Shown: one piece after another, positions 2,400 through 25,382 of the stretch | How positions within the stretch are numbered: the first letter of the stretch is position 1 | Layout of the letters: each line of letters starts with the position of its first letter | Origin: Bacteroidia bacterium | Lineage (GTDB): Bacteria; Bacteroidota; Bacteroidia; UKL13-3 | DNA: 32,055 nt | Assembly: GCA_022402405.1 (NCBI GenBank) | Contig: JAKRSG010000063.1 | Span: 1-32,055 of the forward strand | Direction: 5' to 3' | Made by a program: the position numbers and the translations under genes | The notes under the pieces: model-generated | The model's database searches: none | Told to the model about the DNA's origin: nothing | The model's input: the letters and a program-made list of their open reading frames with translations, nothing else

Positions 2400-2792
2400 C
2401 TAGCATGATTTTGTAGTAGGTGGTTTTATTAATTCTAACACATGAGGATGAAGAAGGTCTGTGAAATATCTATGGAAAGATAATTTTTTATTTACAGGGA
2501 AAATAGGTTCAACCAACATTTGCTTAAAACAAAAAACTAAGGCTATTTCTGTAATTTCTTTTTTGTTGTTGGTTGGTAAGTTGTTTTCAGGTGCCGGATC
2601 TTCTACCTTTTCTAGCTGTTCATTTAATACACAACAACCTTTACAATCCTGGCGCTTTTCGTTTTCTTTATTAATACAAAGCTCCGCAGCAATCGCATCT
2701 TGGTTAGCCTTGAACCAAATGTACAAAGCACTTTTGCTCAAGACAGGTAGCAAGATTAATAAGGTTAACAATATGCTTAGGAAGCGTTTCAC
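2400..2792 (-). CDS. Hypothetical small membrane-anchored Cys-rich protein
   Basis: 130 aa with an N-terminal hydrophobic anchor (FLSILLTLLILLPVL) followed by ELCINKENEKRQDCKGCCVL (C-x11-C-x2-CC). It is co-directional with nosY and starts 45 nt after its stop. No function is recognisable. Confidence 0.5.
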   Translation of the reverse strand: MKRFLSILLTLLILLPVLSKSALYIWFKANQDAIAAELCINKENEKRQDCKGCCVLNEQLEKVEDPAPENNLPTNNKKEITEIALVFCFKQMLVEPIFPVNKKLSFHRYFTDLLHPHVLELIKPPTTKSC

Positions 2793-2837
2793 AATGCGAA
2801 GTTAATTAATTGGTTTTTATTTTTTACATGATTTTAA

Positions 2838-4312: not shown

Positions 4313-5565
4313 TAAATTTTTCTCATTAAAGGGTAGTCGTCTTTTAAGTTTTCTGGTGTTAAAGATGGTAATATTTTTTCTAATACATTCAGTAAGTCTG
4401 CCAAGAAACTTTGTAATAAAATAATAGTGCTTGGATATTCTTCTATTATTCCTGTTAACATATTCATGGGTCTGTAACTTAAATCGCCCATGCCATCTTT
4501 ATTTAAATCGTAGCCTTGATATTTGTCCCAATAATTATGTTTTAAGGTGTTTAACACTGTAAAACCATTGGTTGCATAATCAAAGGTGTTGGTCATAAAA
4601 TTGTTGAACCTAAAATTATTATCGTCGCAGCTGGCTTGCATGCGAAGGGCATAACCATTGTTCGAAAAATGATTGTTTATAAAGTCTGCTCTACTGCACC
4701 CATCCATAAAAATGCCAACTGTATTTTTATCAAAATTATTCTTGTAAAGCTTGCTATCACGAATGTCCTTCAGTAATATTCCATACGAAGAACTACCCCA
4801 GTTTTTATCAAATTTATTCTTTACCATCATAATAAATTGGCTATACATAACGGCCACTCCAGCGCCATTAGCCGCAAAGGTGTTATTGTAGTATGTATCC
4901 GAATCAGAAAACATAAAATGCAAACCGTATCTAAGATTGCCTTCACTATGATTGTTGGCTATGATAGAGTGCTTTACAAATTCAAAATAAATACCATCTC
5001 TTTGTTTTTTAATATTATTGCTAAATATAAAGTTATGTGCAGATTTCCAACAATGAACGCCGTTTCCAACATGGTTTTGCTCTCTGTTTGGTCCGGTAAT
5101 TTGGTTGTTTTGAACCAAACAATAAAAAGAATTAGATAAATAAATCCCAAAGAAATTATTTTCCAGCACATTATTTAAAATTCGCGCAAAACTCTTTTCG
5201 TAAACCTTTATTGCTGCAATATCTTCTAAGTCGGAGAATCCTGAATTTATGAGTTTAAATCCGTTTATGGTAACACAGTCAGAAAGAATTGAAATTATCT
5301 CATGTTTTAGTTCTCCATCCAAAATGGGAAGGTTTTCGCCGATGAGAGTAAGTGGTATCTTAATATTAATATTTGCCTCTTTGTAGTGCCCAGCTTTTAC
5401 CAAAATAGTATCGAATGCATTGGCCTTGTTAATGGTTTCTTGTATTGGTGTCTGACCTGACATAGGTTCAACCAGCCATTTTTTACCATAAACAGATGGT
5501 ACGAGGAATATTATAAATAAAAATAGAATAAACTTATTCATGAACAATTTCTTCTGATTTGCCAC
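4312..5565 (-). CDS. nosD: NosD, periplasmic parallel beta-helix copper-centre maturation protein
   Basis: 417 aa with a signal peptide (FILFLFIIFLVPSVYG) and repeated N-x-I/F-x-x-N-x-x-G-I beta-helix repeats. It lies between nosL and nosF. The track start at 5565 is GTG. The ATG at 5541 (MNKFILF...) gives an 8-nt overlap with the nosL stop and is at least as likely. Confidence 0.9.
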   Translation of the reverse strand: MANQKKLFMNKFILFLFIIFLVPSVYGKKWLVEPMSGQTPIQETINKANAFDTILVKAGHYKEANINIKIPLTLIGENLPILDGELKHEIISILSDCVTINGFKLINSGFSDLEDIAAIKVYEKSFARILNNVLENNFFGIYLSNSFYCLVQNNQITGPNREQNHVGNGVHCWKSAHNFIFSNNIKKQRDGIYFEFVKHSIIANNHSEGNLRYGLHFMFSDSDTYYNNTFAANGAGVAVMYSQFIMMVKNKFDKNWGSSSYGILLKDIRDSKLYKNNFDKNTVGIFMDGCSRADFINNHFSNNGYALRMQASCDDNNFRFNNFMTNTFDYATNGFTVLNTLKHNYWDKYQGYDLNKDGMGDLSYRPMNMLTGIIEEYPSTIILLQSFLADLLNVLEKILPSLTPENLKDDYPLMRKI

Positions 5566-6526
5566 TTTCTTTTAAGCCAGGAAATAAGATAGGAATATTT
5601 TCTTTATTCCTAAAAAATGCCAAGCCGCTGCCCATCGGGCTTTTAATGTTTTCATTTTGCACATAAAAGGTTTGGTTCGAACCAATTAATTTTCCTGGGT
5701 TATCTACTGCCACCACAAAGTTGGATTGTATACTTGGATTATTTTCTTTAACATACAGTTCATAGCAATGGTAATCGTCGAATTTAAATGTTTTGCCTTT
5801 TTGAGTTAGAATAGCCATTCCAAATTTGGTGTCCATGATTTTCATTTTGCAATAATCGCAATCATCTTTTCCAAAATTAATTTCTGAAACAGAAGATGAG
5901 CAAGAACTCAAAAAGCCAATAAGTAGGAGAGAGGCAACGGCATTTACTTTAGATAGTTTTCTTTTTTTTATCCATTCAAAAGCCCAGGCAGAAAGGGCGA
6001 TGATCCCTACCAAAACGATAAGCCAGCCTCCTATAGCTGGAAGAGAAAGTGCCCTAAAGTTTAGTAAATCTTTATATCCTAAAACAGGAGGTTGATATGA
6101 CATTCCTGGAACATTTATAGGTGCGGTTGGGTCTAGATTATGACCATAGTCGTAGCCCCAACGGTAAAAATCAGCGAGGGCTATAATGCCTCCTAAAATA
6201 CAAAGTATTGAAAAGGCTTTTAATAAGTTGTAATTGCCAATAGCGGCAACAATAACCCCAAGTATAATAAAGGTTATCAGAACATATTTTAAAAAAGTGA
6301 ATTCTGGAAACATCTCGGGTTTAATATGTCGCATCCCAATATAGTGGTTTAACCCATTTATAATATCTACATCACCTTTTACATCGTTATACCAAATGGT
6401 GATAGATAATCCTTCTGGATATTGTGGGGCGTATAGAAATATCTCCCATAGAGGTAGATATAAAGATGCAATTACAGCAAGACTCGATATTCCTAAGGCT
6501 ATTCTGAAATACAAATTAAATTTCAT
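5534..6526 (-). CDS. nosL: Fusion ORF: N-terminal 4-TM membrane domain (in the position of the clade-II nos membrane gene) joined to a C-terminal NosL copper-chaperone lipoprotein domain
   Basis: 330 aa. Residues 1 to about 190 carry four hydrophobic segments (LPLWEIFLYAPQYPEGL...). Next comes KKRKLSKVNAVASLLLIGFLSSC, which is a complete lipoprotein signal peptide without a Met. This is followed by the NosL-like DCDYCKMKIMDTKFGMAILTQKGKTFKFDDYHC. The junction sits on an A8 run (see findings). Confidence 0.75.
   Translation of the reverse strand: MKFNLYFRIALGISSLAVIASLYLPLWEIFLYAPQYPEGLSITIWYNDVKGDVDIINGLNHYIGMRHIKPEMFPEFTFLKYVLITFIILGVIVAAIGNYNLLKAFSILCILGGIIALADFYRWGYDYGHNLDPTAPINVPGMSYQPPVLGYKDLLNFRALSLPAIGGWLIVLVGIIALSAWAFEWIKKRKLSKVNAVASLLLIGFLSSCSSSVSEINFGKDDCDYCKMKIMDTKFGMAILTQKGKTFKFDDYHCYELYVKENNPSIQSNFVVAVDNPGKLIGSNQTFYVQNENIKSPMGSGLAFFRNKENIPILFPGLKESGKSEEIVHE
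5962..5969 (-). other. A8 homopolymer (T8 on the plus strand) at the membrane-domain/NosL junction; candidate indel or slippage site
   Basis: The minus strand reads GCT TTT GAA TGG ATA AAA AAA AGA AAA CTA. TGA-ATG is present in the -1 frame immediately upstream (5978..5973). Confidence 0.7.
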
Positions 6527-6535
6527 GTTATTAGT

Positions 6536-6568
6536 TTAAAACCAACAGCCTTAAGAAGGCTGTTGGTT
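6536..6568 (-). terminator. Perfect 13-bp stem-loop between nosZ and the nosL fusion gene (partial terminator, attenuator or mRNA-stabilising hairpin)
   Basis: AACCAACAGCCTT-aag-AAGGCTGTTGGTT at 6540..6568. On the minus-strand RNA it is followed only by UUUUAAAC. Confidence 0.35.
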
Positions 6569-6640
6569 GGTTTTTTATTGGGGTTTTATTCGAGTGAGTG
6601 AACTAATGAATTAGTTTATGAATGTTTCTAGGCATTTAAA

Positions 6641-8629
6641 TTATTTAGCAGGTGCTGGTGCAACTTTTCCGGTAGAGAAGCTTAATGGAACATTAGAACC
6701 TGCTGGCGAAACTCTAACGTATCCTTGCATTTCTTGATGCAAAGCTGAACAGAAGTCGGTACAATACATTGGGAAAACACCTACGCGGTCTGGCGACCAT
6801 TTTAACGTAGCTGTTTCGCCTGGCATAATTAATAATTCTGCATTGTTAGCACCTTTTACAGCAAATCCATGTGGTACATCCCAATCTTGCTCTAAGTTTG
6901 TTACGTGGAAGTAAACTACATCTCCCATTTTAACACCTTCAATATTATCTGGTGTAAAGTGTGAACGGATAGAGGTCATCCAAACATGTACTTCGTTTCC
7001 TTTTCTTTCTACCTTGGCTTGAGCTTCTCCTTTAGCAGCATATGGATGTTTGTTCTCTTCTATTTTGAAGATTTTAACACTGTTTTTAGCTACTAAATCT
7101 GCTGGAATAGCTTCTGCATAGTGAGGTTCGCCAGTAGTTGGGAAGTCTAATAATAACTTCATTTTTTCACCTTCAATGCTGTAAAGTTGTGCCGACTGAG
7201 TAAGTTCTGGTCCGGTAGGTAAATAACGATCTTTGGTGATTTTGTTATAAGCAATCACATATTTTCCCCAAGGCTTTGTTGTTGGTCCGCCCGGTACGCT
7301 TAAGTGACCAATAGAATAATAAGTAGGAACACGGTCAACTACTTCTAATTTTTCTACGTTCCATTTTACGATTTCAGAGGAAACGAAGAATGAAGTATAA
7401 GCAAAACCATTGGCATCAAACTCCGTATGCAAAGGTCCAAGGCCTGGTTTTTTAACTTCGCCATGTAATACGGCATCGTATTTTAACACTGGAATACCTT
7501 GGTAATCGCCTTCAAAAGTTTTAGCTTCGATAGCTTTAGTAATTTTATCAAAAGAGAATACAGGGATAACAGCGGCTAATTTACCTGAAGCTACAATGTA
7601 TTTTCCGCTTGGGTCAACATCGCAGCCATGTGGTGATTTAGGGCATGGCATAAAGTATACTAAACCTTCGTATTCTTTAGGATCTAACATGATAGATTCT
7701 GTTAAGATTTCGCTTTTTGCAGAATGTGTTTCATCGCTATAAGTGTTGTGTGCATAACGAACTTTTTTCTTAGTTCCTTTACCTTGTTTAACAAGCTCTT
7801 CACATTTTTTCCAGTTTACAGCCATAACAAAGTCTTTATCTTTTTGTGAAGCGTTTACTTCTAATAAAGTATTAGCTTGCTCAGAGTTATAACAAGAGAA
7901 AAATACCCAGTCGCCAGAAGCTTTTTTACCAGCACGAGCTAAGTCGAAGTTCATACCTGGTAATATAATTTGGAAACTTAAGCTCATGTTACCAGATTTT
8001 GGGTCAATACCAATAAAGCTAACCGTACCTTTAAAGTTTTCTTTGTAGGTGTCTATAGATACATCTGGATTGCTGGCAGCGTCGTCCATAGGGTAACTAA
8101 AACGAGTACCAGCCACAACGTATTCAGAGTTTTGAGTAATGAATGGAGAGCTATGGTTACCGCTCGAATTAGGTATCTCAATAATGTCTACAGTGCGGAA
8201 TGTTTTTAAGTCGATACGAGCAATACGTGGAGTATTGTTAGCATTAATAAAAGCCCATCTTCCATCATGAGCTCCCTCCGAAACAGATAGAGCAGGGTGA
8301 TGCGAATCATCCCAAGGCACAAATCCATGTGAAGTATTTAACATAGGTTTGGTTTCTTCGCTATATCCATAACCAGAGGTTGGGTCAACTGAAAATACTG
8401 GAATAATTCTGAATAATCTGCCAGAAGGTATTCCGTATACCGACATCTGTCCGCTGAAACCACCCGATACGAAGTTGTAAAACTCATCGTATTTTCCAGG
8501 CTCTACGTATACTTTAGAAGCTGCATCTTTGTTTGAACCGGATTTTGCACCTTTGTCTTTGCAAGCACCAAACATAGTTACTACCATAATTAGCGCTACG
8601 GTAATAATCTGAATTGATTTTGTTCTCAT
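6641..8629 (-). CDS. nosZ: Nitrous-oxide reductase NosZ, clade II (Sec/lipoprotein type)
   Basis: 662 aa. The N-terminus MRTKSIQIITVALIMVVTMFGAC has no twin-arginine motif. It carries the CuZ histidine motif WDDSHHP and the C-terminal CuA motif CTDFCSALHQEM. Confidence 0.97.
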   Translation of the reverse strand: MRTKSIQIITVALIMVVTMFGACKDKGAKSGSNKDAASKVYVEPGKYDEFYNFVSGGFSGQMSVYGIPSGRLFRIIPVFSVDPTSGYGYSEETKPMLNTSHGFVPWDDSHHPALSVSEGAHDGRWAFINANNTPRIARIDLKTFRTVDIIEIPNSSGNHSSPFITQNSEYVVAGTRFSYPMDDAASNPDVSIDTYKENFKGTVSFIGIDPKSGNMSLSFQIILPGMNFDLARAGKKASGDWVFFSCYNSEQANTLLEVNASQKDKDFVMAVNWKKCEELVKQGKGTKKKVRYAHNTYSDETHSAKSEILTESIMLDPKEYEGLVYFMPCPKSPHGCDVDPSGKYIVASGKLAAVIPVFSFDKITKAIEAKTFEGDYQGIPVLKYDAVLHGEVKKPGLGPLHTEFDANGFAYTSFFVSSEIVKWNVEKLEVVDRVPTYYSIGHLSVPGGPTTKPWGKYVIAYNKITKDRYLPTGPELTQSAQLYSIEGEKMKLLLDFPTTGEPHYAEAIPADLVAKNSVKIFKIEENKHPYAAKGEAQAKVERKGNEVHVWMTSIRSHFTPDNIEGVKMGDVVYFHVTNLEQDWDVPHGFAVKGANNAELLIMPGETATLKWSPDRVGVFPMYCTDFCSALHQEMQGYVRVSPAGSNVPLSFSTGKVAPAPAK

Positions 8630-8655
8630 ATATTTTTAAATTGGGTTTTACTTAA

Positions 8656-9147
8656 TTATTTTAATCCATCATTCATGCGCAAAAACTCTAACACGTTTCT
8701 AGCATCATCATCCGAAAGGTTTTGATTTGGCATACGAACCAAACACTCTTCCAACATCGCTATTGCTGCTGGATCTTTGTCTAACATCTCTGCAGCATTT
8801 GTAATAAAGTTCATAATCCACTCTGGCTTTCTTCTTTCGGTAACACCTTTGAAGCCGGGACCAACTAAACGTTCTTCTGTAAGTCTATGACAAGATCCAC
8901 ACTTCATATCGTAAATTCCTTTACCTCCATCGGCAAAGGCTTTGTTTAATGTTGGATCTAATTTAATGTCAGTAAATTTTCCTATTCCCTTGTCACTAGT
9001 TTCTTCTGCACTTGCCTCTTGGGTTTGGTCTGAACCAACTTCTTTGCTCGCCGATGCATTTGCGTTCGAGCTGTTGTTTTCTCCACCGCATGATGCCATC
9101 AGAAATATGGCTAAAATGGCGGTTACAGATAAGCTTATTTTTTTCAT
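8656..9147 (-). CDS. Monohaem c-type cytochrome lipoprotein, probable electron donor to NosZ
   Basis: 163 aa with a lipoprotein signal (FLMASC), a low-complexity linker and a single CGSCH haem-binding motif with a distal Met (VRMPNQ). It is the first gene of the operon and ends 26 nt upstream of nosZ. Confidence 0.85.
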   Translation of the reverse strand: MKKISLSVTAILAIFLMASCGGENNSSNANASASKEVGSDQTQEASAEETSDKGIGKFTDIKLDPTLNKAFADGGKGIYDMKCGSCHRLTEERLVGPGFKGVTERRKPEWIMNFITNAAEMLDKDPAAIAMLEECLVRMPNQNLSDDDARNVLEFLRMNDGLK

Positions 9148-13056: not shown

Positions 13057-13488
13057 CTATTTATTATTCAATACAAAAACATTGTCTTTCAGTTGCTCAG
13101 AAAGCTCATGTATCATAGTGTTTTCTAGCATTTTCTTTAAATCTGTGCGCACGTTTAAAAAATGATAATGAAGCGGACATGGATTTTTGGCGTTGCACTG
13201 TTTTAGACCCAAACCGCATGCCGTAAAAATTGAATCGCCATCTACCACCTTAACAATATCAATTAATCTTACTTTGCTTTCAGGTTTTATAAAAAAACCA
13301 CCACCCGGACCTTTAGATGATTGAATTAGGTCTGCATGAACTAATTTCTGAAGGAGTTTAGCAATGTATTGAGCAGGCACATCTGCCTTTTCTGAGATTT
13401 CATGTAAGTTAGATTTATGCCCATCCTGGGTGTTTTGGCAGATAATAATTACTGCTCTTATAGCGTATTCACAAGATTTTGAAAACAT
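13057..13488 (-). CDS. Rrf2-family transcriptional regulator (NsrR/IscR-like, probable Fe-S sensor)
   Basis: 143 aa with an N-terminal winged helix (SKSCEYAIRAVIII...ISEKADVPAQYIAKLLQKL) and a C-x6-C-x5-C-x2-H cluster-ligand motif (ACGLGLKQCNAKNPCPLH). Confidence 0.85.
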   Translation of the reverse strand: MFSKSCEYAIRAVIIICQNTQDGHKSNLHEISEKADVPAQYIAKLLQKLVHADLIQSSKGPGGGFFIKPESKVRLIDIVKVVDGDSIFTACGLGLKQCNAKNPCPLHYHFLNVRTDLKKMLENTMIHELSEQLKDNVFVLNNK

Positions 13489-16068: not shown

Positions 16069-16090
16069 GGTTTATAAGATTGTACCTTGT

Positions 16091-16098
16091 TAATTTTG
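16091..16098 (+). promoter_or_regulatory. -7 box TAATTTTG for nadA
   Basis: Matches TAnnTTTG and starts 25 nt upstream of ATG 16116. Confidence 0.35.
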
Positions 16099-16115
16099 TG
16101 AACCTTTATTTTAAT

Positions 16116-17078
16116 ATGAAAACAAACGATTTATATTCTCAGATTAATAAGATTAAAAAGGAGAAGGATGTTGTTATTCTCTCTCATTATTACATGAGCA
16201 ACGACTTGCAAGTAGAAACTAAAGATGGCGGTTTTGTAGATTTTGTTGGTGATAGCCTTGGCTTGAGCATTCAGGCTTCTCAAACTAAAGCCAATAATAT
16301 TCTGTTTTGTGGAGTACGATTTATGGCAGAAACAGCATTGTTGGTAAATGAAACTAAGCAAGTATTTATGCCTGACCCAAGCGCTGGTTGCTCCTTAGCG
16401 TCGTCTATAAATGCAAAAGATGTTATAGAGCTTCGCAAAAAATATCCTGGTGTTCCGGTGATGGGTTATATAAATACCTATGCAGAAACTAAAACTCAAT
16501 TAGATGTTTGTTGTACTTCTAGAAATGCCATTAAAATTGCTGCTTCACTTCCATCAGATAAAATAATCTTTGTGCCCGATTTATATATGGGTCAAAATCT
16601 TCAAATGCGAGTTCAAAAAGAATTAGGTAAAGAGCTAATTTTATGGAATGGTGCCTGCGAAGTTCATGAGGCTTTTGCCTCTCATAATTCTGGCATGAAA
16701 AGAGCTATTGATGCCGAATTCCTGTTTCATTGGGAGGTTCCTAAAACTCTAACTTCTATATTGGATGATGGTGCAAAAGGAATGATTGGTGGTACCACAG
16801 ATATTTTGAGCTATGTGAAAAAGAGTCCGAAAAAGAAGTTTTATTTAGCCTCCGAATGCGATTTGGGAGTGGCACTTAAAAAGGAAAATCAAGACAAGGA
16901 GTTTATCACTCCTTGCATACATTGTGCTTACATGAAACAAAATAACATGGTTAAATTATTAGCAGCTTTAAAAGCCATTGGTTCAGACCAACAGCAAAAA
17001 TACCAGGTAACCATTGATAAAAAAACCATGCAAAAGGCCAAAATGCCTGTACTTAGGATGTTGGAGTTAAGCGAGTAA
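16116..17078 (+). CDS. nadA: Quinolinate synthase NadA
   Basis: Motifs are VILSHYYM, FVGDSLGL, FCGVRFMAET, PDPSAGCSLA, YINTYAETK, CCTSRNA, VPDLYMG and GACEVHE. I prefer ATG 16116 (MKTNDLYSQ...) over the TTG at 16080. Confidence 0.9.
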   Translation: MKTNDLYSQINKIKKEKDVVILSHYYMSNDLQVETKDGGFVDFVGDSLGLSIQASQTKANNILFCGVRFMAETALLVNETKQVFMPDPSAGCSLASSINAKDVIELRKKYPGVPVMGYINTYAETKTQLDVCCTSRNAIKIAASLPSDKIIFVPDLYMGQNLQMRVQKELGKELILWNGACEVHEAFASHNSGMKRAIDAEFLFHWEVPKTLTSILDDGAKGMIGGTTDILSYVKKSPKKKFYLASECDLGVALKKENQDKEFITPCIHCAYMKQNNMVKLLAALKAIGSDQQQKYQVTIDKKTMQKAKMPVLRMLELSE

Positions 17079-17089
17079 AAGGGTTAATA

Positions 17090-18568
17090 GTGAATAAACA
17101 AAAAATTATTTGTGTGGGTGCTGGATTGGCGGCTATAAATTTTATAAGACATTTGCCTAAAGAGATTGAGCTTGTTTGGGTATTAAATGAAGGGTATCAA
17201 AAAAGTAACAGCTATTTAGCCAAAGGTGGCGTAGCTGTGAGCTTTCCGGGTGATGTGGAATCGCATATAGAGGATACCTTGGTAGCAGGTGCATCTGCCT
17301 GTGATGAGCAGTTGGTGCGTGAGGTTATTGGTGCTTCGGAGCAGGTTTTTACTTCCATGAAAAAAAGTGGTATCCTATTCGATGAGGAAGCCTTGCAAGA
17401 GGGTGGACACTCGCAAGCGCGTATTCAGCATGTTTCGGATCAAACCGGAAAATTTGTAATAGAACATTTATGGCAAGAAGTGCTCAAAAGAAGAAATACG
17501 CGTTTGTTATTTAACTATTGTGCCAGTGATATATTATGCGAAAATAATGCCTTTAAAGGATTGCAATTGTCGCATCGAATAACGGGAGAACAAATGCTTG
17601 TTTATGGCTCTGCATTGGTTTTGGCAACGGGCGGTGTTGGGAATTTATATAGCATGAATACAAATGCCATCACGGTTAATGGAAGTGCTCTTGGCATGGC
17701 TATTCGTGCCGGATTGAAAACAAAGAATTTGGAGTTTGTTCAGTTCCATCCCACTAAATTATACTCCCCATATAATAGCTCTCAGGTATTAGTAACAGAG
17801 GCTTTTAGAGGAGCTGGAGCGGTTTTAGTAAGCGAATCTGGATATGCATTTATGGATGATATACATCCATTAGCAAGTTTGGCTCCCAGAGATATTGTGG
17901 CTTTAGGGATGTTTAATCAGATGAAGAAGGATGGAGTTTTGCATGTGTATTTGGATTATTCTGCTCTTTCAGATGATGAGTTTCAGACGAAGTTTCCGTA
18001 TTTGTTCCAACAAGCAAGAAGGAGTACTTGGCATAAAAATAAGCGCATGCCGGTTGCTCCTGCAGCCCATTATTTATGCGGTGGCTTAAAAGTGAATGCT
18101 AATTGTAAAACCTCTATGTTGGGTGTTTATGCTATTGGCGAAGTGGCCTGCACTGGTTTACATGGTGCCAATAGATTAGCTAGTAATTCGCTCTTAGAAT
18201 TGTTTTATTTCTCTGAAAAGCTTGCCAAAAATATAAGTGACGATATTCAGGTTATAGAGGAAAAGGATACTATTTTAGAGAGTCTTTCGCCAGTATCGCA
18301 GTTAGATTTGGCCAAATACGAAAAGCAAATGCAATGCATCATGTGGCAGAATTTTGGTATTGTAAGAACATCTTCTGGCATGCATGCAGGCTTATCTAAA
18401 TTGCAAGAATTGGAGTTTCAACTTTGTATGTTAGCAGAGGCTTCTATTCCCTACCGTAGATTATTTAATTCGTTGCAAGCTGCTATCTGTATAGCAAAAT
18501 CTGCTTATAATCGCAAACAATCATTGGGCTGTCATGTGGTAAAACAAGATAATGTTTGTGCTTTGTAG
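17090..18568 (+). CDS. nadB: L-aspartate oxidase NadB
   Basis: 492 aa with a GTG start. It has an FAD-binding N-terminus (IICVGAGLAA), plus VLATGG, FVQFHPT, APRDIV and GEVACTGLHGANRLASNSLLE. Confidence 0.9.
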   Translation: MNKQKIICVGAGLAAINFIRHLPKEIELVWVLNEGYQKSNSYLAKGGVAVSFPGDVESHIEDTLVAGASACDEQLVREVIGASEQVFTSMKKSGILFDEEALQEGGHSQARIQHVSDQTGKFVIEHLWQEVLKRRNTRLLFNYCASDILCENNAFKGLQLSHRITGEQMLVYGSALVLATGGVGNLYSMNTNAITVNGSALGMAIRAGLKTKNLEFVQFHPTKLYSPYNSSQVLVTEAFRGAGAVLVSESGYAFMDDIHPLASLAPRDIVALGMFNQMKKDGVLHVYLDYSALSDDEFQTKFPYLFQQARRSTWHKNKRMPVAPAAHYLCGGLKVNANCKTSMLGVYAIGEVACTGLHGANRLASNSLLELFYFSEKLAKNISDDIQVIEEKDTILESLSPVSQLDLAKYEKQMQCIMWQNFGIVRTSSGMHAGLSKLQELEFQLCMLAEASIPYRRLFNSLQAAICIAKSAYNRKQSLGCHVVKQDNVCAL

Positions 18569-18572
18569 ATAT

Positions 18573-19883
18573 TTATGATTTTATAAGCTTAGGCATTCTT
18601 AGTAAATGTACTCCAATAATTCCCAAGCCTACACTGAGTAAAAATCCGCCTAACACAAATAACATAAAGAAGGGTTTTGATTGCTCCATCATGCTGGAGA
18701 AGCTTCCTGCTCGTTCACTCATTTGCCAGAATCCTTTGTAAATTCCCGCTAATATCAACCCAAGCCAAAGCATAAACAAGCCAATTTGGGTCAGCCAAAA
18801 TACTTGATGCATGTGTTTGCTGTATGTTTTATTTGGTTCAGACATAAATAAAAAGCTTGCGGCTAAAATAATCATGGTGTTTATGCCAATTGTAGTTCCC
18901 ATGGCATGTGCCACAGTTATGTGTGTGCCATGTGTATATAAATTAAAGGCAGGCACCGACATAATAAGCGCTTGAATTAAATTTAAGAATACCCAAAAGT
19001 TGGCCGCTGCAATAAATCTGTAAGCAAAAATAGATTGATATTTTTTTACTTCGGAAATTTCTGCTTTCCATTGGTAGAGTGTTTTAAGGAGAAAAATCCA
19101 TTCGGTCATGCTAACTAAATATCCCACATACCTTATGTATTCTTGTGTTGGCAGGGTATAAATATGGTGACTCCAATTAAACAACATGTTAAATAAGCCT
19201 AAGAAATACAAGGCAAAGGTTGTTTTACTGTAGGCCATTTCCGACTCACCGCTGATTTTATCCATTAGGTAAAATAAGGAGCCATATAAAATCTGATTCC
19301 AAGCGCCCACGAGCGAGCCATTTACTTTCCATTGTATGCTAATGTCTTTCACAATATTTTGATTGAAATAAGGAATAAGCCAAAGATAATTTTCGATGAA
19401 AATATAGATAAAAAAGGTCAAGCCTGTCATCCACATATACAAGTATACAGGCCATTTTATTTTGAAGCTTACCGTTCTAAAGAATTGAATCAAAAATAAT
19501 ATCCAAGCCAAGGCAATTGGAATGGCCCAAATGGGATTAAATTCCCAATATTCTCTGCCTCCAAACTGCTTGTTGAAGTAGGAATAAAACACACCCAAAA
19601 CAGCTATTATCCACAGTGCATATTGCATCAGCGCCATGGTTTTATTAATGCGTTCATGGAAGAGTTGGTTCAGCCCGAAATATACGCAGGCTGTGGCACT
19701 TAAAAGTATCCAAAAAATAGCAGCACTTACGTGCATGGGTCGGAGTGAAACGAGTCCAAATGAATCTATTAATAACTCTGGAAACAAATAGCTTAAGCTT
19801 GCTAGGCAGCCAAAAAGTAGGGTGCTTAAAAGGATAACTAATGCCGTTTTTATATATATACTTCCTAGGTTAATACTGCTCAT
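18573..19883 (-). CDS. Heme-copper oxidoreductase superfamily subunit I homolog (NorB-like), with a non-canonical ligand set
   Basis: 436 aa, consistent with about 12 TM segments. It has LRPMHVSAAIFW (helix II-type His), NWSHHIYT (HH pair) and LYTHGTHITVAHAMGT (helix X-type motif). There is no His at all between FHERI and SHH. It overlaps the upstream cytochrome c gene by 14 nt. Confidence 0.8.
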   Translation of the reverse strand: MSSINLGSIYIKTALVILLSTLLFGCLASLSYLFPELLIDSFGLVSLRPMHVSAAIFWILLSATACVYFGLNQLFHERINKTMALMQYALWIIAVLGVFYSYFNKQFGGREYWEFNPIWAIPIALAWILFLIQFFRTVSFKIKWPVYLYMWMTGLTFFIYIFIENYLWLIPYFNQNIVKDISIQWKVNGSLVGAWNQILYGSLFYLMDKISGESEMAYSKTTFALYFLGLFNMLFNWSHHIYTLPTQEYIRYVGYLVSMTEWIFLLKTLYQWKAEISEVKKYQSIFAYRFIAAANFWVFLNLIQALIMSVPAFNLYTHGTHITVAHAMGTTIGINTMIILAASFLFMSEPNKTYSKHMHQVFWLTQIGLFMLWLGLILAGIYKGFWQMSERAGSFSSMMEQSKPFFMLFVLGGFLLSVGLGIIGVHLLRMPKLIKS

Positions 19884-20289
19884 GTTTTAGAGGTTTAATC
19901 ATGCCCCAAGGGTATACTTCAAATTCTTTTGGTTGTGCAATTCCACTTTTGTTTAAGGATACCAAAAATTGATATAAACTTTCCAATTCTGTTTCGCTTA
20001 AATTAAAACTTGGCATCTGTTGTGCGGCACTTTTTATGGCGCTAGAAAGAAACAATTTCCTATCGCCTGATTGTCCGGCATAGTTTGTTAAATCTGGTCC
20101 GAGGTAACCTCCTAAACCATATATTTGGTGACAGCTTTGGCAGTTGTATTTCTGCCAAACCAGTTTGCCTTGGCTAATTACTTGGGCAATTTTTGGGTCT
20201 GTTTCGGAGTGCGATGAAGAGAGGTAAATACTCCAAGAATAATACAAATAGCTTAAGCATAAAATAAGGAAAACGAGTATTGGTTTCAT
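19870..20289 (-). CDS. Membrane-anchored monohaem cytochrome c (NorC-like position)
   Basis: 139 aa with an N-terminal TM anchor, CQSCH followed by GLGGYLGPDL, and a distal Met (QQMPSF). Confidence 0.8.
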   Translation of the reverse strand: MKPILVFLILCLSYLYYSWSIYLSSSHSETDPKIAQVISQGKLVWQKYNCQSCHQIYGLGGYLGPDLTNYAGQSGDRKLFLSSAIKSAAQQMPSFNLSETELESLYQFLVSLNKSGIAQPKEFEVYPWGMIKPLKHEQY

Positions 20290-20309: not shown

Positions 20310-21176
20310 TTATAGTTTAGATAAATATACTTTAAGCGATTCTTTCCAATGTGGCATGGGTTTAAGATGTAGTTCTTTTAGTTTTTGATTAGCTAAAACG
20401 CTATAAGCTGGACGAGGAGTTTTGGCTGGGAAGTCGCTACTATTGGCCTCAGAGAGCTTGGCAGGAGTGCCACTTAGCTCAAATATGGCTTGTGCAAACT
20501 CATACCACGAACACTGTCCAACAGAGCTTATATGTACAATTCCTTTAACTGTAGTTTCTAATAGTTCTACTAATTTATCTGCGATGCTCTGAGTAGAAGT
20601 AGGCGATACAATTTCGTTTGATACCACTTTTAAATCGGCATTTTCTCTGGCCTTTTTTAACATCAACTGCACAAAGTTTAATCCATTTTTGGCTCTGCAT
20701 GGATTTACACCGTATATAGCCGAAACTCTTACGATTATGGCATCTGCATTGTTTGCTAAAATGGCTTCTTCACCTTTTTGTTTAGATAAACCATACACAT
20801 TTAAAGGCTTGGTTTGATCCGACTCTAGATAGGGTTCATTTTTGTTTCCATCGAACACATAATCTGTGCTTATATTTACAAATCTAACCTTGTGTTTAAA
20901 GCATATACTTGCTATTTGTGCCGGTGAAATGCAGTTTATGAGCATGGCTTTTTCTGGATCTGCCTCGCACAAATCTACTTGATGGAAGGCAGCGGTGTTT
21001 ATAAATACATCTGGCTTATACTCGCTAATCCATGTTTCCCATTTGGCAGATTCTTCAATGCCTGCATCGGCGTGAGTATAGCTAAATATCAGTTGTTTTT
21101 GTGCCAAGAAAGTACTAATAATATCGCTGCCTAGCTGACCATTAGCACCACTAATCATTACTTTTAATGTACTCAT
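20310..21176 (-). CDS. rmlD: dTDP-4-dehydrorhamnose reductase-like SDR (RmlD family)
   Basis: 288 aa with motifs ISGANGQLG, PDVFINTAAFHQVDLCE, STDYVFDG, PLNVYGLSK and SPTST. Confidence 0.8.
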   Translation of the reverse strand: MSTLKVMISGANGQLGSDIISTFLAQKQLIFSYTHADAGIEESAKWETWISEYKPDVFINTAAFHQVDLCEADPEKAMLINCISPAQIASICFKHKVRFVNISTDYVFDGNKNEPYLESDQTKPLNVYGLSKQKGEEAILANNADAIIVRVSAIYGVNPCRAKNGLNFVQLMLKKARENADLKVVSNEIVSPTSTQSIADKLVELLETTVKGIVHISSVGQCSWYEFAQAIFELSGTPAKLSEANSSDFPAKTPRPAYSVLANQKLKELHLKPMPHWKESLKVYLSKL

Positions 21177-22162
21177 ATTTCAATGACTTGTTTAGATACC
21201 AATTGTTTAAAAACTTGAATATTGTAATAAGAAGGTTCTTCAAAATCGTTAAAGTGATCTAAATTCTGAAATAGGTTTTCTATAATATCCTTTTCCGTTT
21301 TTTTTGCCTCATATTTTAATAATTGCTGGGCTTTCTCGGTGCTTACTTTATAGTTTCTATAATCTTGTTGGTTTTTATTATGAACCTTTACCTTCGTTCC
21401 AGTTCTGTTTTCAACGACATCTGCTACCGATTTAGCTAACTCGCCAACTGTGGCATTTAGAGAGCTAATATTAAATACTTCAGCAAAACTGTCTTCATAG
21501 TTTAACGCTAAATGATATGCCTCGCATAAATCTTCTAATGCCAGAATAGGGCGCCAAATACGATGATTGCTTAAGGTAATTTCTCCCAATAATAAGGCGT
21601 TCTTAAACATGGTATTCATGGCTAAATCTAATCTCATTCTTGGACTGTATCCGCAAACGGTTCCCTGCCGAATACATAATACCTGAAAGTTTTCTTCTGC
21701 TAAGGCTAATAAACTTCTTTCGCCTTGTAATTTGGAAACACCGTATGGGTAATTACAAATGGCAGGGTCTTCTTCTGTGTATGTTTTGTTAAGTGTATAG
21801 CCATAAACAGAGCAGGAACTGGCAAATAACAACTGCTTTACTCCGGCTTCTCTGGCCATAAAACCAATGTATGAAGGCAAGGCCGTGTTTAAAATAAAAT
21901 TACTCTTTGGAGAGAATTCTGCCATTGGGTCGTTTGATAATCCAGCCAAAAAAATGATGCTATCATAAGAGGCTAAATCTTGTTGTTTTAAGTCGAATAA
22001 ATCGCCTGTCAACAACCTAATTTTGTCTGGAAGAAAATTTCCAAACCAACACGCATCTGCCACTGTAATATCGTATCCTTTGGCTTGCAAATAGGGAGAT
22101 AATACCGAGCCGATATAGCCGGCACCTCCCATAATTAATACCTTTTTAGCTTTCATAATCAA
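21173..22162 (-). CDS. NAD-dependent epimerase/dehydratase (extended SDR)
   Basis: 329 aa with GGAGYIGS, SSCSVYG and YGVSK (YxxxK). It has 4-nt overlaps with both neighbouring genes. Confidence 0.8.
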   Translation of the reverse strand: MIMKAKKVLIMGGAGYIGSVLSPYLQAKGYDITVADACWFGNFLPDKIRLLTGDLFDLKQQDLASYDSIIFLAGLSNDPMAEFSPKSNFILNTALPSYIGFMAREAGVKQLLFASSCSVYGYTLNKTYTEEDPAICNYPYGVSKLQGERSLLALAEENFQVLCIRQGTVCGYSPRMRLDLAMNTMFKNALLLGEITLSNHRIWRPILALEDLCEAYHLALNYEDSFAEVFNISSLNATVGELAKSVADVVENRTGTKVKVHNKNQQDYRNYKVSTEKAQQLLKYEAKKTEKDIIENLFQNLDHFNDFEEPSYYNIQVFKQLVSKQVIEI

Positions 22163-22725
22163 TAGGTAAAGTGTTTAGATCTTGGGTCGTTAAGCCATTC
22201 AGAAAGTGTAGGAGCCACCTTGTCTTTCGCAGATAATGTTGGCTCTATTATCGGCCATTCAATACCAATAGCAGGATCGTTCCATAGTATGCCTGCTTCT
22301 GCGTTTTTATTATAAATGCCTGTGCATTTATATTGAATTTCGGCAGTTTCGCTTATCACACCAAAGCCTCTCGCAAAACCCGCTGGAGCGTATACCAACC
22401 TGCGGTTTTTATCACTCACAAACTCGCCATGCCACTTGCCAAAACTGGGTGAACCAATTCTAATATCCACCGCCACCAGAAAAGCTTCGCCTTGGGTTAC
22501 ACGCATTAGCTTTGCCATAGGTGGTTCCCATTGAAAATGCAATCCTCTCACCACTCCTCTAGCTGATTTTGAGTGGTTGTCTTGCACAAATTCATCCGTT
22601 ATTCCGGCCGCTGTAAAATGATCTTTTCTATATACCTCACAAAAAAAACCTCTTTCATCCTCATAAACCTCCGGTTCAAATACCTTCAATCCGTTTAAGG
22701 CTTCATTAATCAAATCTATTTTCAT
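22159..22725 (-). CDS. rmlC: dTDP-4-dehydrorhamnose 3,5-epimerase
   Basis: 188 aa with motifs DERGFF, QDNHSKSARGVVRGLHFQ, KLMRVTQGEAFLVAVD, GFARGF and YKCTG. Confidence 0.9.
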   Translation of the reverse strand: MKIDLINEALNGLKVFEPEVYEDERGFFCEVYRKDHFTAAGITDEFVQDNHSKSARGVVRGLHFQWEPPMAKLMRVTQGEAFLVAVDIRIGSPSFGKWHGEFVSDKNRRLVYAPAGFARGFGVISETAEIQYKCTGIYNKNAEAGILWNDPAIGIEWPIIEPTLSAKDKVAPTLSEWLNDPRSKHFTY

Positions 22726-22732
22726 ATTCGTT

Positions 22733-23764
22733 TTATATTAATTGTTTGTAGGTTTTTATTCTTTTTCCAAAAAAGGCCCATACGATACTTCCTTGATACA
22801 TGTTTTGATCTATTATATCGTCGCCAACTTTACGGTTTCTCTGTACTTTTACTCTTTCTACTCGAATGTTTTTATAGTTTTTTAGTATCCAAGTATGAGC
22901 GTATAAAATTCCCTTAGCTACTTGCCATTGCAAGCTTAGCAATGCTTGCGCTAAGGCAACATAATCCAATAACACATGAAAAAATGTTCTACCAAATAGG
23001 TTTTTGCTTTCATAGTTTTTAATCATCATGTAAATAGAATTCCTATGATTCCAATACGTTTTCTTAAAACTCTTGGCTGCTATTGTGGCTCCTCCTACAT
23101 GCCAAATCGTAGATTTTGGCTGAACCAATATCTTATATCCATGTAATTGAAATCTCCAACATAAGTCTATCTCATCCATATGATGTACGATGATTTCGTC
23201 TAGATAGCCAGCCTCCGTTATGGCTTGTTTGTTTACTAACATAGCAGCACCACTTGCCCAGAATATCTCGCATACATTGTTGTACTGCCCATTATCTTTT
23301 TCTAGGCTGGTAAATATTCTCCCTCGCATAAATGGGAATGCATATTTGTCTATCATTCCTCCCGATGCACCAGCATATTCAAAGTATTCGGGGTTCTTAA
23401 TGTCTAATATTTTAGGTTGTATGGCTCCAATTTTTGGGTCAGATAACATGAGTTCTATCATGGGTTCAAGCCAATTCGAATTTACCTCTACATCGTTGTT
23501 AAGACAAACCATGTAGGGCGATTTACAACTGTTAAAAGCCAAGTTATATGCAGCACAATAACCATTATTTTTTGGGTTCTGAATAATACCTACCCATGGA
23601 TATTTTTCTTTTACATAATCAACATCGTTCTCGGTTGATGCATTGTCTAATAAAAATATATGTTTCTTGGTGTAGCTCGATTTTTGTAGTGATTTGAAGC
23701 AGGCATCTAAAAATCTTCTCCCATTATAATTTAGTACCACAATGTCAACGTCTGGGTAATTCAT
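22733..23764 (-). CDS. Family 2 glycosyltransferase (rhamnosyltransferase-like)
   Basis: 343 aa with motifs DIVVLNYNG, LLDNASTEND, NNGYCAAYN, LNNDVEV and the DEID/CWR region. Confidence 0.85.
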   Translation of the reverse strand: MNYPDVDIVVLNYNGRRFLDACFKSLQKSSYTKKHIFLLDNASTENDVDYVKEKYPWVGIIQNPKNNGYCAAYNLAFNSCKSPYMVCLNNDVEVNSNWLEPMIELMLSDPKIGAIQPKILDIKNPEYFEYAGASGGMIDKYAFPFMRGRIFTSLEKDNGQYNNVCEIFWASGAAMLVNKQAITEAGYLDEIIVHHMDEIDLCWRFQLHGYKILVQPKSTIWHVGGATIAAKSFKKTYWNHRNSIYMMIKNYESKNLFGRTFFHVLLDYVALAQALLSLQWQVAKGILYAHTWILKNYKNIRVERVKVQRNRKVGDDIIDQNMYQGSIVWAFFGKRIKTYKQLI

Positions 23765-23862: not shown

Positions 23863-23876
23863 TTGATCTGAATCAA
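23863..23876. promoter_or_regulatory. Perfect FNR-consensus box TTGAT-ctga-ATCAA
   Basis: Exact match to TTGAT-N4-ATCAA. It lies in the 133-bp gap between the crp/fnr stop and the GT2 start. Confidence 0.65.
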
Positions 23877-23897: not shown

Positions 23898-24584
23898 TTA
23901 CCTGTTGGCTAATTGAATTAATTCCTGACGTTTGGCAATTTTTATATACTTTTTGTGTAGTTCTACTAAGCCTTCACTTTGCCATGATTTTAGAATACGT
24001 ATGATGGTTTCTGATGCTAAACCAGTATAGGCGCCCAAGTCTTCGCGAGTGAGTTGAATTTGAAGGTAGTTCTCGGCGTTTACACCATATTTTCTTTCTA
24101 AAAATAAGAGCGCCTCTGCTAATCTTTCCTTACTTGTTTTCTGAATGAAAAATACCGATTTTTCCTCTACTTCACTTATAGTTTTGGCCATTAATTTTAG
24201 AAATCCCATCATAAATTTTTTATTATGCTCTAATAATATAATTACTAATTCTTTTGGAACAAGTAAGGTGGAACAATCTTCCAAAACTTCAGCTGTTGCG
24301 ATATATTTTCCATTTCCAACTAATCCTCTATAGCCGATAATATCTCCCTCAATAGCCAACGATAAAATTTGATTATTTCCATTGGCGCCAGTTTTATAAA
24401 GCTTCACTTTTCCACTTATCATAATATGAATATATTTTACAGTGTCTGACTCGGTGAAAAGGAGCTGACCCTTTTTGAATTTTTTTTCGTTACTCTGGGT
24501 TTCTATGATCGACCATTCTTTTTGAGTACAAGCGCCAAATAGTTTATTACATTCGAGGATTATTTTAATAATTAGATCTTCCAA
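23898..24584 (-). CDS. Crp/Fnr-family transcriptional regulator
   Basis: 228 aa with a cNMP-binding-like beta-roll (FKKGQLLFTESD...ISGKVKLYK) and the C-terminal HTH TREDLGAYTGLASETIIRILKSWQSEG, which resembles FNR ...GLTVETISRLL. It has only three Cys (C12, C19, C104), so it lacks the classical FNR 4-Cys arrangement. Confidence 0.9.
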   Translation of the reverse strand: MEDLIIKIILECNKLFGACTQKEWSIIETQSNEKKFKKGQLLFTESDTVKYIHIMISGKVKLYKTGANGNNQILSLAIEGDIIGYRGLVGNGKYIATAEVLEDCSTLLVPKELVIILLEHNKKFMMGFLKLMAKTISEVEEKSVFFIQKTSKERLAEALLFLERKYGVNAENYLQIQLTREDLGAYTGLASETIIRILKSWQSEGLVELHKKYIKIAKRQELIQLANR

Positions 24585-24659: not shown

Positions 24660-25382
24660 TTAATTGGCTATACTTTCTTCCATTAATATGGCCTTAGGAA
24701 ACAATATATTATTCTCTAAATGCACATGTTGGTGGAGGTCGTCTTCAAATTCTTCTAGTTTGGCAAATAATGCTTTATAGGTATTGCAGGCCCAATCTGG
24801 TGTTGTGTATTGCTTACTTAATACGGCAATTTCTTTTAATAAATCTCCCGCTTTCTCATGCTCCATTTCCATCATGCGTATAGGGTTTTTGGCCGAACCA
24901 AATGGAGGTACATTCATCGTTGAGTTCGTTTTTTTTACTTGAACCAATTGCTTGATATAGGGAAATAATATTTGCTCTTCTTTTTGCATATGACTGTGTA
25001 ACTCGGCTGCTACTATTTTAAATAATTCTAAAATTTTGTAGAGTTCTGGACTTGCATTTCCATGCACTTTAGCTACTTTTTCGGCATATTGCAAGGTGAG
25101 AGGAATGTTTTCTGAAACATATACATGATGTGTGTTGATAATATATTCGCTTAAGAAATCAAGTTCCCAACCATTGAAGTTGTGAGATGGAAAAGTGTTG
25201 TTTCCAATAGCTGCAATATCTGCACTTAGTGCCTCTATATTTACTCCCTTTTTCTCGCAAGCCTTGGCAACACTTACCCCGCCACCACAACAAAAATCAA
25301 TACCGTATTTTTTAAATACATGCGCTGCTTTAATGTTCTCAGAAACAATTTCAGCAACTGTTCTTTCTTTTAATTCATTCAT
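24660..25382 (-). CDS. ytfE: Iron-sulfur cluster repair di-iron protein (RIC / YtfE / ScdA family)
   Basis: 240 aa with the N-terminal ScdA_N motif FKKYGIDFCCGGGVS and hemerythrin-like His/Glu motifs (HHVYVSE, HMQKEEQILFP, MEHEKAG, HVHLENNILFP). Confidence 0.9.
   Translation of the reverse strand: MNELKERTVAEIVSENIKAAHVFKKYGIDFCCGGGVSVAKACEKKGVNIEALSADIAAIGNNTFPSHNFNGWELDFLSEYIINTHHVYVSENIPLTLQYAEKVAKVHGNASPELYKILELFKIVAAELHSHMQKEEQILFPYIKQLVQVKKTNSTMNVPPFGSAKNPIRMMEMEHEKAGDLLKEIAVLSKQYTTPDWACNTYKALFAKLEEFEDDLHQHVHLENNILFPKAILMEESIAN

Follow-up and report, generated by a model that had tools for sequence, protein, structure and literature searches.

A conserved clade related to cytochrome c-dependent nitric oxide reductase that lacks canonical metal and haem ligands

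A 32,055-nucleotide (nt) stretch of DNA from a Bacteroidia bacterium of the lineage UKL13-3 (GenBank assembly GCA_022402405.1, contig JAKRSG010000063.1, positions 1 to 32,055; hereafter the window) carries on its reverse strand a pair of overlapping genes that resembles norC-norB. The pair is predicted to specify a two-subunit, membrane-bound, cytochrome c-dependent haem enzyme from a conserved clade that is sister to the cytochrome c-dependent nitric oxide reductases (cNOR). The small subunit is a NorC-like monohaem cytochrome c of 139 amino acids (aa; 19870..20289), identified by open reading frame (ORF) call, Pfam and a match to the NorC structure. The large subunit is a haem-copper oxidase (HCO) subunit I of 436 aa (18573..19883), in which the helix VI ligands of cNOR are absent and a methionine stands at the second axial site of the low-spin haem. 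The gene is an ordinary member of a large, conserved sister clade of cNOR and probably not a new discovery.

The assignment to the HCO superfamily is based on both sequence and predicted structure. The large subunit matches Pfam COX1 (PF00115) with an E-value of 1.9e-31 and 109.8 bits against a cutoff of 34.8, and no NCBIfam model scores above its cutoff, the cbb3 CcoN model TIGR00780 giving 46.9 bits against 583. The nearest solved structures by sequence are the cNOR NorB chains 4xyd_A and 3o0r_B, followed by cbb3 CcoN. An AlphaFold2 (AF2) model (predicted local distance difference test score, pLDDT, 78; predicted template-modelling score, pTM, 0.82) has the 12-helix subunit I fold, and Foldseek aligns it to NorB and CcoN with a template-modelling (TM) score of ~0.8; qNOR and the A- and B-type oxidases rank far behind, with ba3 far lower. 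The small subunit has an N-terminal membrane anchor, a CQSCH haem c attachment motif (C50-H54; 20128..20142, reverse strand, checked in translation), a G-x-G-x-Y motif and a predicted Met ligand in QQMPSF. Its best PDB match is NorC 3o0r_C (E 8.9e-12), in an alignment that spans all four elements. An earlier note on this DNA had described a small cytochrome c gene running into a large-subunit gene with a 14-nt overlap and had likened the two to NorC and NorB; both ORFs were found as claimed, with that overlap, and the NorC and NorB structure matches support the likeness. Public databases name members of the clade in two ways, as 'nitric oxide reductase subunit B' (IMG, UniProt) and as 'cbb3-type cytochrome c oxidase subunit I' (PGAP), with P0021, P0032, P0353 and P0387 as examples.

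Active-site ligands and their conservation

The cNOR of Pseudomonas aeruginosa served as reference. In this enzyme haem b is ligated by His60 and His349, haem b3 by His347, and the non-haem iron FeB by His207, His258, His259 and Glu211, with E135, E138, E211, E215 and E280 as the conserved glutamates (reported by Hino et al. 2010). The variant large subunit has ten histidines (His51, 76, 239, 240, 318, 321, 326, 357, 359 and 426) and none between residues 76 and 239. The residue census thus agrees exactly with the histidine list of the earlier note and with its statement that His is absent from helix II to the HH pair.

Alignments were made with phmmer against both cNOR structures, with a family profile against 3o0r, and with hhalign for the family against five cNOR sequences (probability 99.5%, E 1.5e-22). 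In the agreed alignment His51 corresponds to His60, Asn188 to His207, Val192 to Glu211, Asn196 to Glu215, His239/His240 to His258/His259, Glu261 to Glu280, His326 to His347 and Met328 to His349. All of these residues are encoded on the reverse strand: His51, the first axial ligand of low-spin haem b, at 19731..19733; the His239-His240 pair of helix VII at 19164..19169; and His326-Ala-Met328, with His326 proximal to the high-spin haem b3 and Met328 at the second axial site of haem b, at 18900..18908. On helix VI, the segment Q184-W-K186-V-N188-G-S-L-V192-G-A-W-N196 (19296..19334) replaces W-W-V-V-H207-L-W-V-E211-G-V-W-E215. Between two conserved Trp, helix VI of the family is one residue shorter than that of cNOR, and the register is therefore uncertain by one; when the family profile was aligned to 4xyd, a shifted one-residue gap placed G189 at His207 and a gap at Glu211. 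A His or a carboxylate falls at the helix VI ligand positions in none of the alignments. The earlier note had placed Asn, Val and Asn by eye at the helix VI His and the two Glu and had read the helix X H-x-H as H-A-M; the profile alignments that it proposed as a check bear out both readings.

Each of the ligand signatures of the reference enzymes is thus incomplete in the variant. Four of the six HCO histidines are present (H51, H239, H240 and H326), and the helix VI His and the second helix X His are absent. Three of the five cNOR glutamates are kept as E111, E114 and E261, with Val in place of E211 and Asn in place of E215. From the FeB ligand set the HH pair alone remains, with N188 or G189 at His207 and V192 or a gap at Glu211, and from the bis-His coordination of haem b only H51 remains, with M328 at His349. 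Other elements of cNOR have been retained, since equivalents of residues of the proton path and Ca site are present as E111 (E135), E114 (E138, in this subclade), D180 (D198) and E261 (E280), together with the Tyr of the NorC-like GxGxY motif. Residues 183-211 form one helix in the AF2 model, and by helical periodicity, from which the pocket geometry was deduced, Q184, N188, V192 and N196 would share the helix face that carries His207, Glu211 and Glu215 in cNOR. Two of these residues, Q184 and N196, are amides kept throughout the clade.

Homologues of the large subunit are numerous. A word-indexed search returned at least ~3000 matches, the best 120 of which are full-length, 52-89% identical and from Bacteroidota, and a profile search of 1.84 billion cluster representatives gave 162 clusters at E<1e-30 and 648 at E<1e-3. 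When the GTDB species genomes were scanned for window-specific peptide patterns, 63 loci were recovered, all in Bacteroidota, with the cultured carriers Flavobacterium filum, F. piscinae, F. ardleyense, F. odoriferum and F. psychraquaticum; F. cheniae, F. orientale and F. helocola are among the named cluster members of the clade. In 20 close relatives the mean column identity is 67%, and the motifs TIQWKVNGSLVG and THGTH.TVAHAMGTTIGIN are almost invariant.

Conservation was counted in 75 diverse full-length representatives of the clade. H51, H240, H318, H326 and E164 are present in all 75, H239 in 74, M328 and E111 in 73, N196 in 72, and Q184 and Y242 in 71. Positions conserved in at least 90% of the representatives comprise R48, H51, G109, R110, E111, Y112, E164, Q184, W185, N196, H239, H240, Y242, H318, H326 and M328. 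Met328 is a defining feature of the clade, and its near-invariance makes His/Met ligation of the low-spin haem a sound inference. Position 188 behaves differently. Asn is found there in 55 of 61 close relatives, the other six having S, A or Y, while across the representatives the position is occupied by Y (31), L (10), N (8), I (7), V and C (4 each), A and T (3 each), F (2), and Q, G and M (1 each). Position 192 is always aliphatic or aromatic. When the orthologues are consulted, as the earlier note had suggested, its Met substitution is therefore conserved, but its Asn substitution is confined to the subclade of the window. Asn188 was accordingly rejected as a conserved substitute ligand; the variability of position 188 suggests that it has been released from ligand duty and that the third canonical ligand was lost, not swapped for Asn. 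From these patterns the FeB-type site looks to have been lost or rebuilt.

A neighbour-joining tree was calculated from the 75 representatives, several close relatives, four cNOR sequences (two from PDB alignments and two from paralogues in the loci) and two cbb3 sequences as outgroup. In this tree, which supplies the phylogenetic placement called for in the earlier note, the clade is monophyletic and is sister to the four cNOR sequences, not inside them; support for the sister relation is moderate, coming from a distance tree with few outgroups. A basal subgroup, with QWH..D in place of QWK..G, includes members from Saprospirales, Verrucomicrobiota and an alphaproteobacterium (Parvularculaceae), and the clade therefore extends beyond Bacteroidota. 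Members of this subgroup (P0227-P0265, P0441-P0519) carry QWH-x-x-D on helix VI, lack the Glu280 equivalent and keep H-x-M, and their His186 might be a displaced third metal ligand. Position 186 is Lys in 60 of the 75 representatives and His in 14, and it co-varies perfectly with two others: K186, G189 and E261 occur together (59+1 sequences), as do H/Q186, D189 and A/G261 (15 sequences). The co-variation reflects a single evolutionary event, because one split in the tree underlies the pattern, and it is no more than suggestive of a buried Lys186-Glu261 pair near the active site. Four distant members of ~800 aa (P0141, P0145, P0174 and P0195) have subunit I fused at its C-terminus to a FixO/CcoO-like domain and one or two cytochrome c domains, which indicates that some lineages use a cbb3-style electron-entry module instead of NorC.

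Relation to described haem-copper families

With cNOR (3o0r, 4xyd), which is both the nearest solved structure and the sister clade, the variant shares the norC-norB order with overlapping genes, a NorC subunit with anchor, CxxCH and Met ligand, the subunit I fold (TM ~0.8), and the equivalents of His60, His258/259, His347, Glu135, Glu138, Asp198 and Glu280; a cross-linked Tyr is absent from both. It differs in being only ~20% identical, in the replacement of His207 by Asn, Glu211 by Val, Glu215 by Asn and His349 by Met, and in having invariants of its own (E164, Q184, K186, which is His in the basal subgroup, N196 and Y242). Moreover, no norQD goes with the variant, its operon partners are nadAB and nrdDG rather than nir and nor genes, and some genomes that bear it also carry a canonical cNOR. 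The likeness to cbb3 CcoN extends to the fold, the haem b/b3 layout, the Ca-site Glu and the cytochrome c partner. Unlike CcoN, the variant lacks the helix VI His and the helix VII Tyr (M, L or S is found there), its partner is NorC-like, and there are no adjoining CcoO or CcoP genes; cbb3 membership was rejected on ligands, partner subunit and the TIGR00780 score (46.9 bits vs 583).

Two further families in which ligands are altered were also considered. In the putative NO dismutase (NOD) of 'Ca. Methylomirabilis oxyfera' a metal-ligand His is consistently Asn and a catalytic Glu is Gln, a change from His and Glu to amides that resembles the one in the variant. NOD is, however, a fused qNOR-type protein of ~800 aa without haem c, quinol site or electron input, whereas the variant has a functional-looking NorC, substitutions at different positions and a changed low-spin haem ligand; NOD membership was rejected on the length of 436 aa and the separate haem c subunit. 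In the putative NO reductase nNOR the low-spin haem is predicted to be His/Met-ligated, as in the variant, and Murali et al. 2024 (PMC11214002) expect its potential to be ~150 mV higher because of the Met. The nNOR enzymes are nevertheless related to the B family and have a CuA-type subunit II and a full cNOR-like FeB ligand set, and membership was rejected on the branch (cNOR and cbb3 being nearest), the NorC-like partner and the missing FeB ligands. The His/Met haem common to nNOR and the variant clade is convergent.

The closest counterpart in the literature is found in the same survey (Murali, Hemp et al. 2024, PNAS 121:e2316422121; PMC11214002; preprint 10.1101/2021.10.15.464467), which distinguishes twelve HCO families. 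One of these, 'N2O red', is set apart there as 'closely related to cNOR'; it lies on the C-family branch, its novel active site has no Tyr, and it has 25 occurrences in NCBI, 293 in GTDB and 597 in IMG metagenomes. The text names no ligand set for this family, and Fig. 1 of the survey is confined to the B-family-derived NORs. The name is tentative and was motivated by Flexibacter (Solitalea) canadensis, a Bacteroidetes organism with a membrane-bound N2O reductase activity that is insensitive to acetylene and sulfide (PMC11214002). The variant clade fits this description in its relation to cNOR, its place on the C-family branch, the lack of an active-site Tyr, its occurrence in hundreds of genomes and its link to Bacteroidetes. 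Less easily accommodated is the remark in the survey that an active-site His is replaced for the first time in gNOR, which clashes with the variant clade and with NOD unless read loosely, and the N2O reduction proposed for 'N2O red' is not favoured by the gene context of the variant. By elimination, and with the two compared by description, the clade is probably the 'N2O red' family; either that, or it was counted within cNOR by Murali et al. It has thus most likely been flagged already in one sentence of that survey (PMC11214002). By its ligands and partners the protein falls outside cNOR, cbb3, NOD and nNOR, and the 'undescribed active-site variant' of the earlier note is probably an overstatement. 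Solitalea canadensis is not among the named matches listed for the clade, and the literature search turned up nothing further on a cNOR-like, NorB-like or non-NosZ N2O reductase in Bacteroidetes.

In relation to the available literature, the new elements are the unconstrained position 188, the invariance of Q184, N196 and E164, the presence of Met328 throughout the clade, Lys at position 186 with His in the basal subgroup, the operon with genes for anaerobic NAD and deoxynucleotide synthesis, and the co-occurrence with canonical cNOR.

Genomic neighbourhood

In the window, the pair is directly preceded on the reverse strand by GT2, rmlC, epimerase and rmlD genes (20310..23764; gaps of -4 to +20 nt). 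The gaps within the whole six-gene string of GT2-rmlC-epimerase-rmlD-norC-like-HCO range from -14 to +20 nt, no terminator-like site was found on the reverse strand within it, and the six genes probably form one transcription unit. A perfect FNR/Dnr-type box, TTGATCTGAATCAA (TTGAT-N4-ATCAA; 23863..23876), lies ~100 nt upstream of the GT2 start and 2 nt past the stop of a Crp/FNR-family regulator gene (23898..24584, reverse strand) whose product lacks the FNR N-terminal Cys cluster. It is the sole perfect box in the window, where 0.15 would be expected, and at least one box occurs in 14% of shuffles, so that its presence is weakly unexpected. The tight packing and the lack of a terminator-like site imply that the box could drive a six-gene operon. 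The perfect FNR box that the earlier note had placed upstream therefore exists, but it is 3.6 kb from the pair, ahead of GT2, and not directly before it. As a family-wide regulator site the box was rejected (4 of 38 operon-upstream regions in relatives, at one mismatch or fewer), and it is a feature local to the window.

Beyond the regulator gene lies a gene for the YtfE/RIC iron-sulfur repair di-iron protein (24660..25382, reverse strand; TIGR03652, 248 bits, above cutoff). On the other side, nadA-nadB (16080..18568, forward strand) converge on the pair, the stop codons of nadB and the HCO gene being 4 nt apart (18568-18573), and no terminator-like hairpin was detected between or around these stops; in most relatives nadAB are upstream on the same strand. 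A generic Rrf2-family regulator gene (13057..13488, reverse strand) is 5 kb from the pair. It was rejected as NsrR, with 30.9 bits for the NsrR model against a cutoff of 182, and the 'NsrR-like' label given to it previously does not stand. The ytfE gene and the nos genes reported in the same note are both confirmed, the latter as a clade II (Sec-type) nos cluster (1494..9147, reverse strand; TIGR04246, 934 bits) composed of genes for a cytochrome c, nosZ, a nosL-like gene, nosD, nosF, nosY and a YtkA-like gene, which ends 9.4 kb from the pair. Neither norQ nor norD is present in the 32-kb window.

Several other genes of the window deserve mention. The gene at the nosL position (5534-6526) encodes a product of 330 aa that resembles NosL only weakly, towards its C-terminus (residues 220-309), and matches no NCBIfam model; it may be a fusion or an extended NosL. 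The window has a gene for tryptophan 2,3-dioxygenase (12056-12991), from the kynurenine route to quinolinate, which requires O2, as well as nadA/nadB of the O2-independent route, which suggests that NAD can be made either with or without O2. Two further features are linked to copper handling: an MbnP/MbnH pair (di-haem peroxidase-like; 14247-16017), located between the nos cluster and the HCO pair, and the YtkA-like gene at 1494-2339. MbnP/MbnH is near the variant pair in 12 of the 63 loci.

Among relatives, the NorC-like gene adjoins the HCO gene in 61 of 62 loci, and the pair almost always closes a tight run of genes on one strand, the cytochrome c gene following its predecessor at -23 to +30 nt. 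The usual string consists of c5, nadA, nadB, one or two beta-eliminating lyase genes, an ADP-forming acyl-CoA-synthetase-like gene, the norC-like gene and the HCO gene, and the gene just before the pair is nadB, the lyase, the acyl-CoA-synthetase-like gene or c5; a proline dehydrogenase or PTPS/QueD-like gene often follows the HCO gene. The long string recurs in L003-L063 (e.g. L050, about 1-9300; L022; L027). The c5 product is a conserved protein of ~600 aa without a Pfam match (e.g. L008, 4283-6094) whose gene heads the nadAB-HCO string in at least 14 loci, is present in 28 of 63 and is absent from the window. The order found in Flavobacterium is nrdD-nrdG-rrf2-nadA-nadB-norC-like-HCO. These recurrent strings physically couple de novo NAD synthesis and anaerobic ribonucleotide reduction to the haem enzyme. 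Five loci have GT2-rmlC-epimerase-rmlD ahead of c5-nadA-nadB-norC-like-HCO, and the order of genes in the window is best read as a rearranged version of this arrangement in which nadAB were inverted and c5 was lost.

Stress-related genes are also common near the pair: within 8 kb, Rrf2 is found in 26 and YtfE in 12 of the 63 loci, nrdDG are near it in ~15, and thioredoxin-like and DUF2249/DUF1858 genes recur. The nos genes are less frequent at the same distance (NosZ in 4 of 63, NosF in 10). In one locus (L064) the variant pair has DUF2249, DUF1858 and YtfE genes as neighbours, and 8 kb away, adjoining the DUF1858/DUF2249 and YtfE-like genes, is a second polytopic membrane protein of 430 aa with a weak COX1 match (274-1566), which may represent a further divergent protein of haem-copper type within this stress island.

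The norQ and norD genes, whose products reportedly insert FeB (Kahle et al. 2018), were found in four of the 63 loci (L001, L002, L004 and L008). In three of these, a canonical norB with norQ-norD adjoins the variant pair (L001, 2441-9311; L002, 2917-9332; L004, 1474-10678), with norC and ytfE also beside the canonical norB in L001 and L002; in L008, ytfE-norQ-norD precede the pair, and there is no canonical norB in the fetched stretch. The canonical NorB proteins of L001, L002 and L004 have the motifs WWVVHLWVEG, GTGHH and HGH and are ~23% identical to the variant. The presence of canonical cNOR beside the variant implies that the variant is not a stand-in for cNOR and that the two enzymes coexist.

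Possible function and significance

Taken tentatively, at a probability of about 0.45, the pair would be a cytochrome c-dependent reductase of an N-oxide, most probably NO, that acts under hypoxia or nitrosative stress. Electrons would enter through haem c of the NorC-like subunit and pass to the low-spin haem b ligated by His51 and Met328, where the Met probably raises the potential, and from there to the high-spin haem b3 bound by His326. The distal pocket would be formed by the His239/His240 pair and the helix VI face with Gln184, Asn188, Val192 and Asn196. With the helix VI ligands missing, a four-ligand FeB of the cNOR type cannot form, and the distal site may be haem-only or may hold a metal on the two His and something else. 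Protons would be consumed from the periplasm; the retention of the proton-path and Ca-site residues (Glu111, Glu114, Asp180, Glu261 and the NorC-like Tyr) argues for such a proton-consuming reductase rather than a relic. Judged from gene context, the enzyme would remove a small N-oxide, most probably NO, during hypoxia or nitrosative stress, would protect the co-encoded radical and iron-sulfur (Fe-S) enzymes NrdDG and NadA, and would work alongside a canonical NOR, not in its place.

Several observations weigh against an N-oxide reductase of this kind. The FeB ligands His207 and Glu211, whose loss would abolish activity in cNOR, are missing, which excludes the known mechanism of NO reduction. 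The AF2 model is least confident at the active site, with pLDDT <50 at residues 181-185 and 237-246. An FNR box with at most one mismatch is found in 4 of 38 operon-upstream regions of relatives, against a background of 0.16 per kb, and upstream of c5, nrdD, rrf2 and ytfE there is no shared regulator motif, only AT-rich 8-mers. The mixed hypoxia gene context fits a function directed at O2, peroxide or N2O equally well. In addition, Cloacibacterium sp. CB-01 has norBC with only minor NO-reductase activity reported; if this norBC belongs to the clade, efficient NO reduction would be disfavoured.

A reductase of some other small oxidant, such as O2 at low tension, H2O2, nitrite or hydroxylamine, which would use haem b3 and the distal His pair and shield the O2- and ROS-sensitive NrdDG and NadA of the same operon, is unlikely but has several points in its favour. 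NadB makes H2O2 when O2 is present, and the operon linkage to nrdDG, nadA and nadB suits such a role. So do descent from the C-family/cNOR branch, whose oxidases are of high affinity, the fusion of some members to FixO/CcoO-like and cytochrome c domains as in cbb3, and the Tyr residues of the wider clade, Tyr being commonest at position 188 and Y242 being invariant (71/75). Yet the three-His CuB site is absent, no Tyr occupies the cbb3 helix VII cross-link position (M/L/S), and without His207 for a cross-link the known mechanism of four-electron O2 reduction is excluded; Tyr188 is also absent from the subclade of the window, and the ytfE, Rrf2 and DUF2249 neighbours point to NO over O2. Equally doubtful is a broader proposal in which the clade gave up FeB altogether and performs chemistry new to the superfamily. 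The reaction would take place at haem b3, in a pocket with two His and a lining of amides, with electrons supplied by a His/Met haem b of high potential; it might be the reduction of N2O without NosZ, or a new reaction in which NO or O2 is consumed. A buried pair of Lys186 and Glu261 (His186 and Asp189 in members of the basal subgroup) would take the place of the metal ligands, and in Bacteroidota the enzyme would be a constant component of a hypoxia operon that also serves NAD synthesis and ribonucleotide reduction under anaerobic conditions.

A haem-based, membrane-bound N2O reductase that converts N2O to N2 independently of NosZ is a somewhat more remote prospect. It is the tentative proposal made for the cNOR-related 'N2O red' in PMC11214002, and the clade, as a sister of cNOR without a Tyr cofactor and centred on Bacteroidota, answers to what is described there; the proposal nevertheless consists of one sentence without data. 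The proton path and electron-input subunit are kept, as a reductase needs, and nos genes are 9.4 kb away in the window and within 8 kb in some relatives (NosZ 4/63, NosF 10/63). A complete Sec-type nosZ cluster in the window, however, leaves no gap to fill, and the pair is linked far more strongly to nadAB, nrdDG, rrf2 and ytfE than to nos. It also counts against this proposal that we know of no chemistry for N2O reduction at a haem with a two-His pocket.

There is little to recommend a catalytically dead or non-enzymatic cNOR derivative that binds haem to sense NO or redox state, serves as a scaffold for electron transfer, or helps to assemble a canonical cNOR or cbb3 encoded at another locus. 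The loss of two of six canonical His and two of five conserved Glu, the free drift of position 188 and the canonical cNOR directly beside the variant pair in three loci would all be compatible with it. Against it, the proximal His, the HH pair, Met328, Q184/N196, E164 and the residues of the proton path are strongly conserved in the 75 representatives, a dedicated NorC-like electron-input subunit adjoins in 61 of 62 loci, most loci lack a nearby canonical NOR, and a clade that spans Bacteroidota, Verrucomicrobiota and Alphaproteobacteria is both large and old. The idea that the gene is a pseudogene in decay, or a normal norB altered by an error of sequencing or assembly, has nothing to commend it except the missing ligands themselves and was rejected as virtually impossible: the reading frame is intact, the substitutions are conserved and under selection in thousands of homologues, which settles the question of decay raised in the earlier note, an 89%-identical homologue and hundreds at 52-66% identity share the same motifs, column identity averages 67% in the 20 close relatives, and the canonical norB paralogues of L001, L002 and L004 are only ~23% identical.

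Whatever the substrate, members of the clade cannot, judging from their residues, work by the known NO-reductase or oxidase mechanism. The NorB and CcoN labels mean that gene-centric surveys count the clade as NO reductases or oxidases in Bacteroidota, and counts of norB by KO or by name in this phylum, which is important for its clade II N2O reducers, include a ligand-deficient clade. If the clade does not reduce NO, the 'nor + nosZ' genotypes of many Bacteroidota have been misread; if it reduces N2O, NosZ is not the sole biological N2O sink. The cultured carriers Flavobacterium filum DSM 17961, F. cheniae, F. piscinae, F. ardleyense and F. orientale allow a direct test, and the clade constitutes a natural experiment in which a haem-copper scaffold exists without the third His and the glutamates and with a His/Met low-spin haem.

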